A DNA stretch of 28,534 nt, taken from assembly GCA_019058365.1 (NCBI GenBank), contig JAHPZE010000041.1, positions 1 to 28,534 of the forward strand, given 5' to 3'. This DNA is from Promethearchaeota archaeon (lineage in GTDB: Archaea; Asgardarchaeota; Lokiarchaeia; Sigyniarchaeales; SOKP01). The notes below the pieces were generated by a model. The model had not been told where the DNA came from, ran no database searches, and saw only the letters and a list, made by a program, of their open reading frames with translations. Positions 18,776-24,026 of this stretch are shown one piece after another (the first letter of the stretch is position 1; every line of letters starts with the position of its first letter). The translations under genes and the position numbers were made by a program.

Positions 18776-19969
18776 ATGTCTTATATTGATAAAGATAAAT
18801 TACGAGCCTTATTCAAGTGGTATATGCAAGAAGTAGGAGAAATCTTAGTTTCTGTTCTTGTAGTTGGGCGTGATGGGTTAGTAATTGATATTTTAACAAG
18901 AGAATCTGATAAATTAGAGGAAAAAAAGTTTATTGGAGCATTTAGTTCTTTGGTTGAATTAGTATTAAAAAAATTAACTCACGATTTTGATCTTGGAACT
19001 TTTGGTGCGGGAACTTTTGATACAGATAAATACAGATTCATTTTTTGTGAATCTGGATCTGAATATGTTTTAGTTTCTATACTCAATCATACTGCTTTAG
19101 TTGATGATGTATTTCCATATACTTATTTAACTGCTGATAAAGTATCAAGGATTATTGATGGAGAATTACCAGTTAGTCCTGTAATTCCGAAAGTAAAAAG
19201 AGATACTGAACTTGAAAAAATAAAGCGAAAAATGGAATATTACCAAAGTAAGCCTCACTCACCTGAGTATGTCTATAAACTTTCTCTGATTGGAGATAAT
19301 AAAGTTGGAAAAACCAGTTTGGCTCAAAGATACGTTCATGGAATATTTAAAACTGATTATAAAGCAACCATAGGTACTTATATTTCTAAGAAAGAATGTG
19401 AATTTAAAGAATTGGGGACTTCTGTCAGATTTATGATATGGGATTTAGCAGGACAAAGTCAATTTGAACGATTATGGCCAGATTATTTAACAGATTCTCG
19501 CGTAGGAATCATTGTTTTTGACATATCAAATAGAGCATCTTTTGAGCATGTCAAGAAATGGTATGATATCATCACAAGAGTCGCATTACCTCATATTGTT
19601 CTGATTCTGGTTGGTAATAAAGTTGATCTAAATGCTTCAAGAGTTGTTTCAGCTGAAGAAGGTATGGAACTAGCTAAAAAATTAAAGATCTATTATATGG
19701 AAACCTCAGCAAAAACAAATGAGAATATCGATGATGTTTTTGAGTGGATTGCTCTTCAAATCATTAATATGAATATTGAAGAAGTAAAGGATACATTATT
19801 CGACAAGCAAATGGAGGAAGGATCAAAATTTGTAATTTCAAGCCCTCAATTGAAAATATTGAATCAATATTTCACGAAACAATTAGATTATTGCATAGGA
19901 AAAGGTGATACCAAAGAAATTTTTAAACACTTAGATATTTTAAAAGCAATAGAAAAAAATAAGTTATAG
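18776..19969 (+). CDS. Roadblock/LC7-like domain fused to Rab-like small GTPase
   Basis: N-terminal SVLVVGRDGLVI (roadblock-like). G1 GDNKVGKTS, G2 YKATIG, G3 WDLAGQ, G4 GNKVD, G5 ETSAK. Confidence 0.92.
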   Translation: MSYIDKDKLRALFKWYMQEVGEILVSVLVVGRDGLVIDILTRESDKLEEKKFIGAFSSLVELVLKKLTHDFDLGTFGAGTFDTDKYRFIFCESGSEYVLVSILNHTALVDDVFPYTYLTADKVSRIIDGELPVSPVIPKVKRDTELEKIKRKMEYYQSKPHSPEYVYKLSLIGDNKVGKTSLAQRYVHGIFKTDYKATIGTYISKKECEFKELGTSVRFMIWDLAGQSQFERLWPDYLTDSRVGIIVFDISNRASFEHVKKWYDIITRVALPHIVLILVGNKVDLNASRVVSAEEGMELAKKLKIYYMETSAKTNENIDDVFEWIALQIINMNIEEVKDTLFDKQMEEGSKFVISSPQLKILNQYFTKQLDYCIGKGDTKEIFKHLDILKAIEKNKL

Positions 19970-19986
19970 AGTAATTTAGAAACATA

Positions 19987-22887
19987 TTAATTATTTATAT
20001 AAAGAGCGGGCTTGAACGGTTTTGCTCTTGTAGATCTTTGTTTTGGATCAAAATCGGAATTGATTACAATCAAGGAATTTACTCGTTTTTCTATATAGGA
20101 CTTATAATGATTAAGTAATTCAATTTCATCTACTTTTGGTAATTGTTTTTCCCATATCCGATCTTTTATTTGACTTTTTATAAAAGAGATAAGTTCTTTA
20201 TTAGATAATAATTCCCTTTCTTTTTGTATCTCAGAGATTATATCATCAAAATTATCTTTTTTTGATAATATCATATTTAATGCTTTATACTTCCATATAG
20301 GAGCCGTATATATATGTATTTCATCAGATTTCAATGATTTTACGATTTTCTTTATATTGAAAATATCCTCAATAACATTTGAGATATACTCAAATTCAAG
20401 TTCAAGGTTCGTATTAATATATTGTGTATTAAAGTCTCCCCAAATTATTTTTGAAATAAATCCTTCATTTCCGGCAATTTCCCATAATTCTTCACATAAA
20501 TGAGGCATTGTTAAGGAAAGTATTTTTAACCAATCTTTATAAATCAATTTAAAAACTATTAGAAAGTCATTTATGTCATCTGTATCCCTTGAAAATTCCT
20601 GTATTAGATTAAAAACCTCATAAAATGATGTTTGAAGATATCTCCTTATATTGTATTCTTCTAATGCCTCTTTAGCTTCAATAAATTTCTTAATAATTTT
20701 AGAGAGCATCACTTTTGAGTATTTAGAGTTAATATCTTCAAATTTAGCTTCAATATTTTTTGATTGCTTAATTCTATCATAATTGAAACTATAAAATTTG
20801 AATATGTGATTTTTAACAGTTTCTACCTCTTTTTCTCGAAAATCCATATACACACCGAAATCAGCACCGTGAGATATATAGAATCTAAACAAATCAGCAG
20901 AATAATTTTTTTTTATATCTGCAAGAGGAATCACATTTCCTTTTGATTTGCCCATTTTTTGTCCTTCTACATTTACTGGTTCGATTAAAGTAATTATTTT
21001 TGGCCAATGTTTCTCTGGGAAGATAGCAACATGATGGAATATATAAAAACTTAAATGATTTGATATGTGCATGATAGCTGTATGTCTATGATCAACTGGA
21101 TACCAGTATAGAAACTCCTTCTGCATTTCTTTAAGTAGTTCTTCTTCTATACTCGTCTGTTTTGCAAGTTTCTTAATATCTCCTTTCTCTAAGAATACAA
21201 AATCAAAGAATTCTGGAATTAGCTGATCTAATGCAATCTGATATTCCCTTATTTTATGCACAATAGTGTAGAATGCCATGTAAATTGTACTATCACTTAG
21301 GGATTCTATTATCCATTCTTTATTAAAGGGAAATTTCGTCCCTAGACCTCTTTTTCTTGCGCAGGGTCTTTTTTCAAGCCAATTAAAAATATTTTCAAAA
21401 TTTAATCGATATTTGTGAGGTATAATTTTCATGTCATTAAGGCACTTAAATGCTTTTTTCTTCCATTCTCCTGCATTAAAATTCAGAAACCACTGATCTT
21501 TTAAAATGGAAACGATAATGTTAGCTCCACATTTGCATTTAAGATTTTTAGTAACTGGAATAAATAATTTATCAGCTCTATTCTCTTCGATTAAATCTTC
21601 TGAAACTTGTTTAGCAGCATCACTAACCTTCATTCCTTGGTATTTACCACATTTATCATTAAGAAATCCATTATAAAATTCAGTTTTATAATTCTCACTT
21701 GTTGCTAAATCTAGTTTTTCTTTATCTATTTGAGATTCAACATCATATTTTTCACAATATATTTTTGCGGGAAAATCCTTGAACCCTTTTAATTCAATAA
21801 TTTGAATTGGATAAATTAATTCGATTTCTCGTTTATCTAAATTAAATTCTTCAATTAATTCTGTATCTTTTTGTAAATCAATTAAAGCTATATAATCATA
21901 AGGAGCATGAGCTGGAACTGAATAAACTACACCAGTAGCTGTAGCTGTATCAACAAAATCTCCGGGTAAAATTGGAATTTCTTTAATTCCATAAACATCC
22001 CTAGCCTTTTTTCCAATGATTTTACTTCCTTTAAACTTTTTTAATATTTCAATCTCTTTATTTTGATTTTTTAATATATGGGTTGCTTCCTCGGAAATAA
22101 ACCATATCTCCTCATTTAAAGATGCCTTAATATAATCTCCATTTGGCTTTATCCATATATTTGTAACTCCGTAGACTGTTTCTGGTCTTAATGTAGAAGC
22201 CACGAGAAAACCATCTTCAAAAGGGAATTTTATACAAATAAATTCATTAATATTAAGGTCTAACTCATCCCCACTATCAATATCGTCCTCGCCTACAGCA
22301 TTCTTATCTCGTGGACAATATAAAATTGGATATTCACCCTTTTCAATATATCCCTTTTCATTTAAATGATAATATTGCCATTCGATGAATTTATTATAGA
22401 TTTTATCTCCAGTTGTAAATTCTCTTCTCCAGTCCAAACTCATACCAATTGATTTAAAATCAATTTTAATAGTATTAGAAAAGTATTTTACAATATTCCA
22501 TGGATCTACAAAACTATCAACAATTTCATCTACTTTTTTTTGATCTTTAGTATGTAATGATACGTATTCTTTCATCCTAGTTATTTGTATTTGAACCCCT
22601 CTTTCTATAGAAGAAGAAATTGCTAAAACTGGAGTACCAGTTATATGAAATGCCATAGGATATAACACATTATATCCTTTCGCCCGATAATATCTTGCAA
22701 ATATATCTCCGTTAATAAAACTTCTTCCATGACCTATATGAGTAGGACCTGAGGCATATGGATAAGGAGAGGTAATAAAAATTTTCTTTCTTTTCTTATC
22801 TGGATTTGCTTCGAATATTTTTGCTTGCTCCCATCTATCTTGCCATTTCTTTTCAATTTCTAGTGGAATATACATTTCTTTTAACAC
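19987..22887 (-). CDS. leuS: Leucyl-tRNA synthetase (archaeal/eukaryal type)
   Basis: IEKKWQ..W, PYPYASGPTHIGH, HITGTP, DWRREFTT, TLRPET, TGVVYSVPAHAPYD, IESLSDSTIYMA, KMGKSKGN, C-terminal AKPFKPALYI. Start is GTG 22887 or ATG 22875. Confidence 0.97.
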   Translation of the reverse strand: MLKEMYIPLEIEKKWQDRWEQAKIFEANPDKKRKKIFITSPYPYASGPTHIGHGRSFINGDIFARYYRAKGYNVLYPMAFHITGTPVLAISSSIERGVQIQITRMKEYVSLHTKDQKKVDEIVDSFVDPWNIVKYFSNTIKIDFKSIGMSLDWRREFTTGDKIYNKFIEWQYYHLNEKGYIEKGEYPILYCPRDKNAVGEDDIDSGDELDLNINEFICIKFPFEDGFLVASTLRPETVYGVTNIWIKPNGDYIKASLNEEIWFISEEATHILKNQNKEIEILKKFKGSKIIGKKARDVYGIKEIPILPGDFVDTATATGVVYSVPAHAPYDYIALIDLQKDTELIEEFNLDKREIELIYPIQIIELKGFKDFPAKIYCEKYDVESQIDKEKLDLATSENYKTEFYNGFLNDKCGKYQGMKVSDAAKQVSEDLIEENRADKLFIPVTKNLKCKCGANIIVSILKDQWFLNFNAGEWKKKAFKCLNDMKIIPHKYRLNFENIFNWLEKRPCARKRGLGTKFPFNKEWIIESLSDSTIYMAFYTIVHKIREYQIALDQLIPEFFDFVFLEKGDIKKLAKQTSIEEELLKEMQKEFLYWYPVDHRHTAIMHISNHLSFYIFHHVAIFPEKHWPKIITLIEPVNVEGQKMGKSKGNVIPLADIKKNYSADLFRFYISHGADFGVYMDFREKEVETVKNHIFKFYSFNYDRIKQSKNIEAKFEDINSKYSKVMLSKIIKKFIEAKEALEEYNIRRYLQTSFYEVFNLIQEFSRDTDDINDFLIVFKLIYKDWLKILSLTMPHLCEELWEIAGNEGFISKIIWGDFNTQYINTNLELEFEYISNVIEDIFNIKKIVKSLKSDEIHIYTAPIWKYKALNMILSKKDNFDDIISEIQKERELLSNKELISFIKSQIKDRIWEKQLPKVDEIELLNHYKSYIEKRVNSLIVINSDFDPKQRSTRAKPFKPALYINN

Positions 22888-22942
22888 ATTCTTGGTTTTT
22901 TCTGCTTTACTTCAAGTTTAATTCTTATTTGAGTAAATAACC

Positions 22943-23051
22943 ACCCATGATCTCTTTCAGTTAAATTTACCAACCAAGCGAACAAATCCGTGGAAAAAGT
23001 AAAAGAGAAAGAGCATAGGGATTTGTTTCGCTCAAGGTAATAATAAAACTG
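22943..23051 (-). promoter_or_regulatory. Candidate attenuator RNA structure in the leuS 5' leader
   Basis: Core stem AGCGA(A)ACAAAUCC (23032-23019)/GGAUUUGUUCGCU (22989-22977), extended by UUACC/GGUAA and CAGUU/AACUG. The loop holds a pyrimidine tract. Alternative helix CCUAUG-CUCUUUC/GAAAGAG-AU-CAUGGG. Confidence 0.65.
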
Positions 23052-23091
23052 CGAGTAAATCGACTGATAATACTTTTTCTATTAAATTCAT
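23032..23091 (-). CDS. Putative leuS leader peptide MNLIEKVLSVDLLAVLLLP (7 Leu of 19)
   Basis: ATG AAT TTA ATA GAA AAA GTA TTA TCA GTC GAT TTA CTC GCA GTT TTA TTA TTA CCT TGA; about 29 nt after a TATA box and about 145 nt before leuS. Confidence 0.7.
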   Translation of the reverse strand: MNLIEKVLSVDLLAVLLLP

Positions 23092-23119
23092 CTTCAACGC
23101 AGTCTTATTTGAAATCATT

Positions 23120-23127: not shown

Positions 23128-23405
23128 GAGTATATACATTTTTATATTAAAATATTTCCAAGTCCTGATATTATAATATATTACTCTAAATTAAACGAAG
23201 ATACATATTGCAGTTAAGTCTAATGCAATAACTCGTTTTTAGAAAATAATGTAAATTGTTAAATATATAAAGGTTCCACTTTTTATTTTACTCTTCCATT
23301 AATTACATAAAATAAAGAGTAAATAATCTTTCTCCAAAAAAATAATACGAATCTAAAATTCATGACTATATAATCCTTTTTAATAAAATTCAAATTTTAT
23401 TACTT

Positions 23406-24026
23406 ATGTCAATAACGAAAAAAAATGCTGAAATCAAAGCAGAAAATATTGTAAGGAGAGTATTAGAAGAAAAAAATTATCTTTCTAAAGTGTTAAAAGG
23501 AATTCTGGCTAAAGAAGATTCAGTGAGATATCCAAATGCGATCGCTTTAGAAATTCTAAGTAAGGAGAATCCTAAAATTATTTATCCTGAATGGAATTTT
23601 TTTGTTAATTTACTCAAAAGCAAAAATGCTTATCATAAATCGATTGTAATCTCTACAATTTCAAATTTAACTATAATAGATGAAAAAAATAGATTTGAAG
23701 AAATTTTTGAAGATTTTTTTAGCCTTATTGATGATAAAAGTGTTATTGTTTCTAGAAAGTTAGCAATTTATGCAGGGAGAATTGCTACTGCTAAACTCTC
23801 ATTAAAATCTAAAATAACGGCAGTTTTGCTAAGTATTGATGATACTCAACATAGTCCAAGTCGCAAAGATTTAATAAAAGGAGACATTATTGAAAGTTTT
23901 AGTGAATATTTTGAAGATATTAAGGATAAAAAAACAATTATCGAATTTGTCAAAAAACAATTAGATAGTAGTAGTCCAAGTACAGTGAAGAAAGCTAAAG
24001 AATTTCTCTTAAAATGGGAAAAATAA
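23406..24026 (+). CDS. HEAT/ARM-like alpha-solenoid hypothetical protein
   Basis: Repeated HEAT-like units: DSVRYPNAIALEILS, LIDDKSVIVSRKLA, QLDSSSPSTVKKAKEFL. Confidence 0.7.
   Translation: MSITKKNAEIKAENIVRRVLEEKNYLSKVLKGILAKEDSVRYPNAIALEILSKENPKIIYPEWNFFVNLLKSKNAYHKSIVISTISNLTIIDEKNRFEEIFEDFFSLIDDKSVIVSRKLAIYAGRIATAKLSLKSKITAVLLSIDDTQHSPSRKDLIKGDIIESFSEYFEDIKDKKTIIEFVKKQLDSSSPSTVKKAKEFLLKWEK

Follow-up and report, generated by a model that had tools for sequence, protein, structure and literature searches.

Genomic Setting of the leuS Leader

The window analyzed here, a 28,534-nt stretch from a 4.7-Mb Lokiarchaeia (Promethearchaeota) assembly, carries on its minus strand an archaeal-type leucyl-tRNA synthetase (LeuRS) gene, leuS, which is preceded by a short leucine-rich leader ORF and by a leader RNA with two alternative hairpins, A and B, around a U-rich tract (Table 1). 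The leuS start is conserved. Convergent with leuS is a gene (18776–19969, plus strand) encoding a Rab/Ras-type GTPase (Pfam Ras) that carries a Roadblock-like N-terminal fusion, and 23406–24026 (plus strand) encodes a divergent, helical-repeat-looking protein of 206 aa with no match in Pfam.

Table 1. Features of the leuS leader region, given as positions in the window.
Feature	Position	Strand	Description
TATA-like box	23143–23152	−	Lies 25–34 nt before the leader AUG; 68 leaders share a profile that turns from T-rich to A-rich across −34 to −24
Leader ORF	23032–23118	−	28 codons, 8 of them Leu; ends in LLAVLLLP-stop
Segment 2	23019–23034	−	Stop codon plus 13 nt; 5′ arm common to hairpin A and the outer B helix; under a ribosome at the stop codon
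Segment 3	23005–23019	−	5′ arm of the B core; contains the first U block
U/pyrimidine tract	22992–23013	−	Forms the loop of A; contains the best match to the aCPSF1/FttA pattern, with a cut predicted after 22994–22996 (pattern match only)
Segment 4	22976–22989	−	3′ arm of hairpin A; sits in the apical loop of B
Segment 5	22959–22975	−	Probable partner of the 3′ part of the U tract inside B; no covariation with leader codons
Segment 6	22944–22958	−	3′ arm of the B core
Segment 7	22929–22943	−	3′ arm of the outer B helix; its pairing with segment 2 excludes A; lies beyond the coordinates of the first-pass annotation
A-rich spacer before leuS	22876–22928	−	No conserved Shine-Dalgarno (SD) sequence
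leuS	19987–22875	−	Archaeal-type LeuRS; TIGR00395, 935 bits (cut-off 648); conserved start at 22875

The host genome contains two LeuRS genes, one of which is the leuS of the window; the other (G000:C35:276509-279298) scores as bacterial-type, and no leader of the leuS type precedes it. A genome search found no second copy of the leuS-leader RNA family in the host genome, which encodes both ilvC and ilvD. The archaeal-type leuS is patchily distributed across the family, with its nearest non-Loki matches in Nanoarchaeota/Aenigmarchaeota (47–53%), and the leader is also found 5′ of two other LeuRS types (L148, L149, L150, L203, and L214). The occurrence of the same leader before different LeuRS types suggests gene replacement behind a retained regulator.

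The Leader ORF

Covariation was analyzed in 68 distinct orthologous leuS leaders from one Lokiarchaeia family, and 40 further leaders, mostly paralogous and unused in defining the helices, were held out. All 68 orthologous leaders contain a short ORF of about 24–30 codons with a terminal Leu run, the start of which is the conserved AUG of the sequence MISN and not the inner AUG of MNL. The most conserved Leu positions are codons −2 and −3, at which Leu is found in 96–97% of the orthologues. All six Leu codons occur among these ORFs, with UUA accounting for 72% of them in an AT-rich genome, and both the frame and the Leu content are retained despite indels and synonymous changes. Judging from the spacing of the TATA-like box, the transcript is probably leaderless, or nearly so, from its predicted start site. 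The first codons (23104–23118, minus strand), encoding M-I-S-N-x-T-A, are shared by the leuS and paralogous leaders; this conserved start may reflect a function of the peptide or a preference of leaderless initiation.

Two Mutually Exclusive Hairpins

The pairings that the first-pass annotation had quoted for its two competing folds are all present in the sequence. Each helix was examined with five covariation measures against 500 shuffles and with an alignment-free test giving z for the own versus a swapped partner segment; the shuffle statistics and z values ignore relatedness, and weight rests on the control segment pairs (z ≤2.2) and the held-out paralogues.

Fold A is the minimum free energy structure of 22943–23051 (−24.3 kcal/mol), and is modestly more stable than its shuffled controls (z −2.08; 4 of 200 shuffles), which taken alone is weak evidence. 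Its core (23033–23019 with 22989–22976) is 91% paired across the 68 orthologous leaders, with double changes at 8 of 14 pairs; 0 of 500 shuffles reached its values on four measures and 1 of 500 on the fifth, and the own-versus-swapped z was 10.3 in the orthologues and 10.3 again in the 40 held-out leaders. This support covers the core and not the arm formed by the leader codons, with which fold A had originally been drawn: the CAGUU/UUACC extension came out on top in one of the five covariation measures only, with a z of −0.9. Though not conserved, this extension stabilizes A in the window genome, where it tips the ribosome-free transcript towards A, unlike in 87% of relatives. A further pairing proposed for the SVDLL codons behaved like chance, with 320–483 of 500 shuffles scoring as high and an own-versus-swapped z of 0.2.

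Fold B also covaries, and is longer than had been noted. In the family register, its core is a continuous 15-bp helix, 78% paired and with 65 double-change cells (0 of 500 shuffles), with an own-versus-swapped z of 11.3 in the orthologues and 7.2 in the 40 held-out leaders. The register drawn initially is the better one for the window sequence (−28.3 vs. −24.6), and most relatives slip by 2 nt. Outside the core, segment 2 pairs with 22943–22929 (z 5.5 in the orthologues and 4.6 in the held-out leaders); on the inner side, the 3′ part of the loop probably pairs with 22975–22959 (z 5.3 and 2.9). The other named segment pairs gave z ≤2.1 in the orthologues, and controls gave ≤1.6 in the held-out leaders. 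On these sequence comparisons, B is one long imperfect hairpin that runs from the stop codon to 22929, burying the U tract and excluding A. Segment 2 has two alternative partners, segments 4 and 7, so full B excludes A. B had alternatively been envisaged as a pseudoknot on the A stem; a stable full pseudoknot was rejected as an end state, since segment 2 covaries with both segments and the outer B helix uses the bases of A, and a partial pseudoknot may at most be a folding intermediate. Folded from the stop codon onwards, B is 9–10 kcal/mol more stable than A in 99–100% of the leaders.

Natural variants include one leader without part of segment 6 (L130), two without the segment 7 pairing (L017 and L131), and one with the stop codon shifted three codons into segment 2 (L127). 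A covariance model of the element found matches in 95 of 135 genomes of the Lokiarchaeia family and in 0 of 24 genomes from six other families, and curated Rfam models of T-box, riboswitch, and leader families gave chance matches only (E 0.7–4).

With respect to possible outputs, the remark that no hairpin is followed by a U-run holds, as a run of at least 4 U follows the B core in only 11 of 67 leuS leaders. Segment 7 as a terminator U tail was not supported, its unpaired bases being 26–31% U, compared with 24–25% downstream. The 45–72 nt from the B core to the leuS AUG are A-rich and lack a conserved SD sequence, SD-like motifs being found in 26% of the genes of the host genome. No SD sequence lies under either fold, and SD masking was rejected as the output, neither fold being near the leuS start. 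With neither fold near that start and B lacking a conserved U tail, factor-dependent termination is the most likely output.

The U Tract as a Candidate aCPSF1/FttA Site

The U tract averages 64% U, and at least two U4 runs are present in 49 of 68 leaders. In the published geometry of FttA cleavage (PMC11616081), the cut is at a U, lies 22 nt from the nascent 3′ end, and has a U-rich stretch 7–13 nt upstream. The best conserved candidate cut, after 22994–22996, lies 38–40 nt after the leader stop codon, and a site of this pattern at +38 to +40 is present in 87–90% of the leuS leaders and 71–79% of the paralogues. A main cut in segment 4 (after 22986) was rejected, fitting 31–50% of the leaders versus 72–90% for the loop site. 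At real gene ends of the host genome, FttA-pattern sites are most frequent between +30 and +50 (0.37, compared with 0.22 for the A mirror); the genome is AT-rich, and U-rich patterns of this kind abound in it, occurring in 22–37% of 20-nt windows at gene ends. The host genome encodes aCPSF1 (TIGR03675, 887 bits; cut-off 580), and a Loki aCPSF1 orthologue has been reported to be active with U tracts, and in Methanococcus (PMC8716108). The resemblance of the loop tract to an aCPSF1 site, already pointed out, is supported as a pattern match only, which is consistent with a role as a termination signal.

B hides the best cut site, and A leaves it single-stranded in its loop. According to the published FttA geometry, at the time of a canonical cut segment 4 would still be inside the polymerase and segment 6 unmade, which leaves the ribosome, and neither of the folds, able to act as the first gate. 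The polymerase must advance some 40 nt past the canonical cut position before the partner strand of B is available.

Ribosome Position and Folding Kinetics

The modelled ribosome footprint extended 12 nt beyond the first A-site base, in agreement with PMC7261190, with 15 nt as an alternative reach. Only a ribosome at the stop codon or last codon (12-nt reach), or also at the last two codons (15-nt reach), abolishes A, and a ribosome stalled on 78–91% of the Leu codons among the last twelve leaves A intact. With a ribosome at codon −2, B is obtained in 87% of the orthologues once segment 6 exists. The predicted handle of the ribosome consists of the stop codon and the 13 nt after it, and not the codon arm or the SVDLL helix. 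Of the proposal that ribosome position selects the fold, the part that stands is that the ribosome decides whether A forms; the leader codons do not provide the handle.

In a toy co-transcriptional folding model with ten parameter sets and assumed rates, slower Leu decoding led to a longer time in A at all ten settings. The sharpest variable of the model was the continued presence of the first ribosome on the uORF with the polymerase at 22973, for which the values rose from 0.01–0.67 to 0.8–1.0 with slow Leu decoding. In the model, A thus goes with starvation and early B with plenty, opposite to what the earlier scheme would require for the usual sign of control.

Related Leaders in the Lineage

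Versions of the leader with Val/Ile/Leu runs (L186–L223 and L224–L243) precede a gene for a 480-aa FrhB-ferredoxin protein and an acyl-CoA dehydrogenase/ETF operon; others are found before unrelated-looking acidic ORFs of 41–64 residues beside a divergent aminotransferase-like gene. The genes downstream of these paralogous leaders did not distinguish between the two signs of control.

Distinct leaders with cognate codons precede a second ileS gene, pheS, and trpB2 in the host genome, the latter two being conserved in relatives. The trpB2 leader (gene at G000:C26:50853-52256, plus strand; L245/L268), which is unrelated to the leuS leader, contains a 16-codon Trp-rich ORF ending in WQWPWxWQ-stop in 13 genus-level loci and a U tract/FttA-pattern site at +42 to +51; W-rich trpB2 leaders occur in three more distant genomes. 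The pheS leader (gene at G000:C50:48041-49576, minus strand; L244/L248) contains, about 207 nt upstream, a Phe-rich ORF with a terminal QDS..F..F..LPRE motif in 11 of the 12 loci at genus level. Pairing is possible between the LPRE codons and a conserved sequence downstream of the stop codon, and this leader may encode an arrest peptide or represent another kind of switch. The 24-codon ORF preceding the second ileS (G000:C37:43265-46129, minus strand; L246) ends in four Ile codons, and alternative helices were noted there by eye.

A Proposed Model for Leucine-Dependent Control

The element is very probably a leucine gauge of some kind that is read by the ribosome. We lean, by a small measure, towards the more specific view that it is an archaeal ribosome-read attenuator with cleavage by aCPSF1, a CPSF73-like nuclease, at a gated U tract as its output, belonging to a switch family that precedes leuS and other branched-chain genes, with separate Ile, Phe, and Trp leaders in the same Asgard lineage. 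The best explanation of how it works, which is put forward tentatively, is a gauge of leucyl-tRNA through conditional transcription termination, in which a mini-gene terminator fires once the ribosome has finished.

In this mechanism, the uORF and U tract would together act as a mini-gene whose terminator is of the ordinary aCPSF1 kind. When Leu-tRNA is plentiful, the first ribosome would reach the stop codon, block A, and depart before the polymerase has moved about 60 nt beyond the stop codon, after which aCPSF1 would engage the unfolded tract and cut near 22995, ending transcription (off). With scarce Leu-tRNA, the ribosome would still be on the Leu codons and would keep aCPSF1 off the polymerase; A would close as segment 4 emerges, removing later single-stranded cut sites, and B would then displace A, probably via a toehold between the loop and segment 6, leaving the tract buried in the finished mRNA (on). 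A would thus be the starvation fold, and the exposed state would be unfolded RNA and not A.

The mini-gene reading is favored by covariation in two separate sets, by the loss of A only at the stop codon or last one or two codons, by the increased time in A at 10 of 10 settings of the toy kinetics, and by the match between the position of the FttA-pattern site and the gene-end peak at +30 to +50. Negative feedback is the established logic of pheST and T-box control, and retention of the leader with three different LeuRS types favors the same logic here. Exclusion between the ribosome and aCPSF1 at Spt5, on which the gating would draw, has been proposed as a hypothesis only (PMC11616081, PMC8116511). 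Against this reading, the polarity of FttA would lead one to expect cutting to increase, not decrease, when the ribosome lags far behind; the best site stays single-stranded in A, U-rich patterns are common, and the kinetic parameters are assumed; and the same RNA family before the acyl-CoA dehydrogenase/ETF operon could want the opposite sign.

Alternative Explanations

The polarity originally envisaged, with the usual sign, has a ribosome stalled on the last Leu codons melting A so that B masks the tract and polymerase reads through, and quick release allowing A to hold the tract open for aCPSF1. The strong conservation of Leu at −2/−3, the formation of B with a ribosome at −2 in 87% of orthologues once segment 6 is made, the hiding of the best site by B and its exposure by A, and the similar use of a terminal codon run by mycobacterial poly-Cys sORFs (10.1101/834739) all fit. 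However, A is intact with a ribosome on 78–91% of the Leu codons, none of the ten toy-model settings gave a shorter time in A with slow Leu decoding, and B comes too late, requiring the polymerase about 40 nt past the canonical cut position; selection of B by starvation, with A as the terminating fold, is therefore doubtful, and this scheme seems unlikely. Keeping the fold roles of this scheme and reversing the sign, a stall would yield naked RNA and A, with aCPSF1 cutting (off in starvation), and efficient translation to the stop codon would yield B (on with plentiful Leu-tRNA). Every helix then has a role, the ribosome-position, U-site, and kinetic results are accommodated, as is the action of FttA on uncoupled RNA, and the acyl-CoA dehydrogenase/ETF and FrhB-ferredoxin genes behind paralogous leaders are consistent with such a sign. 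It would, however, impose positive feedback on a synthetase, including the bacterial-type main LeuRS of one genome (L214), and sits poorly with the cognate-codon leaders before ileS, pheS, and trpB2, where shortage should induce; we regard it, too, as unlikely.

Three further explanations are each given only a slim chance. In a classical two-hairpin attenuator, A would be the antiterminator and long B itself would release the polymerase near 22930, in keeping with the stop-adjacent geometry known from E. coli attenuators, the 9–10 kcal/mol advantage of B over A in 99–100% of the leaders, and the U6–U9 after B in a few paralogues; what makes this improbable is the missing U tail (26–31% U vs. 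24–25% downstream) and a loop tract left without explanation. Control at the level of translation, with B linking the uORF stop codon to the A-rich spacer and blocking or shunting ribosomes that re-initiate at leuS, would account for B beginning at the stop codon and for a core that ends 45–72 nt before an AUG without a conserved SD sequence, but the start region is covered by neither fold, the spacing ranges from 25 to 74 nt, and the U tract has no role, leaving this reading a poor prospect. Finally, the leader might not sense leucine at all, being a structured element retained because it stabilizes the mRNA or sets a fixed leak, its U-rich codons arising incidentally, as 72% UUA among the Leu codons of an AT-rich genome might suggest; this is hard to reconcile with a frame and Leu content that survive indels and synonymous changes, with codon identities that match the gene (Leu with leuS, Ile with ileS, Phe with pheS, Trp with trpB2), and with covariation of both mutually exclusive helices, and is accordingly thought improbable.

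Comparison With Known Systems

Ribosome-read leader attenuation was found described only in bacteria; a literature search, with most subscription papers beyond its reach, found no published leader-peptide attenuation in archaea. If based on aCPSF1, the element would offer a natural 190-nt test substrate for the exclusion of ribosome and aCPSF1 on the archaeal polymerase, a test of whether Asgard transcription-translation coupling is tight enough for gene regulation, and a case, from the archaeal lineage nearest to eukaryotes, of premature cleavage that is regulated and carried out by a CPSF73 homologue. Since Loki aCPSF1 is active in Methanococcus (PMC8716108), a test in a genetic host is feasible.

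Mycobacterial poly-Cys sORFs share with the Loki leader a leaderless sORF, a terminal run of cognate codons, and use before several genes; their structure sequesters a downstream SD sequence (10.1101/834739), whereas the Loki folds are far from the start and no SD sequence is conserved. Attenuators of leuS have been predicted in Streptomyces (PMC1262725, in which the tna attenuator is also cited). With E. coli pheM-pheST, leuL, and trpL, the leader has in common a uORF of cognate codons, before a synthetase gene, and exclusive helices under ribosome control, and, as in classical bacterial attenuators, the first helix directly adjoins the stop codon and is therefore blocked by a ribosome completing the ORF. 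Unlike these, the Loki leader has no intrinsic hairpin-plus-U-run terminator, carries its U tract inside the folds, and is probably leaderless and read by an archaeal polymerase.

In E. coli tnaC-Rho and Salmonella mgtL, the ribosome's position on a short leader gates a termination factor site after the stop codon. A ribosome-gated factor site just past the stop codon would likewise be present in the Loki leader, with the nuclease aCPSF1 as the factor instead of Rho, and the leader appears to sense tRNA charging and not an arrest peptide. With archaeal aCPSF1/FttA terminators (PMC8716108, PMC11616081), it shares at least two U4 runs, the pattern of the site, and the distance of gene ends from the stop codon; the Loki site differs in lying in a 5′ leader inside alternative helices, and conditional use is absent from these two reports. 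Overall, the nearest logic would be, by analogy, that of tnaC and mgtL, with aCPSF1 replacing Rho.
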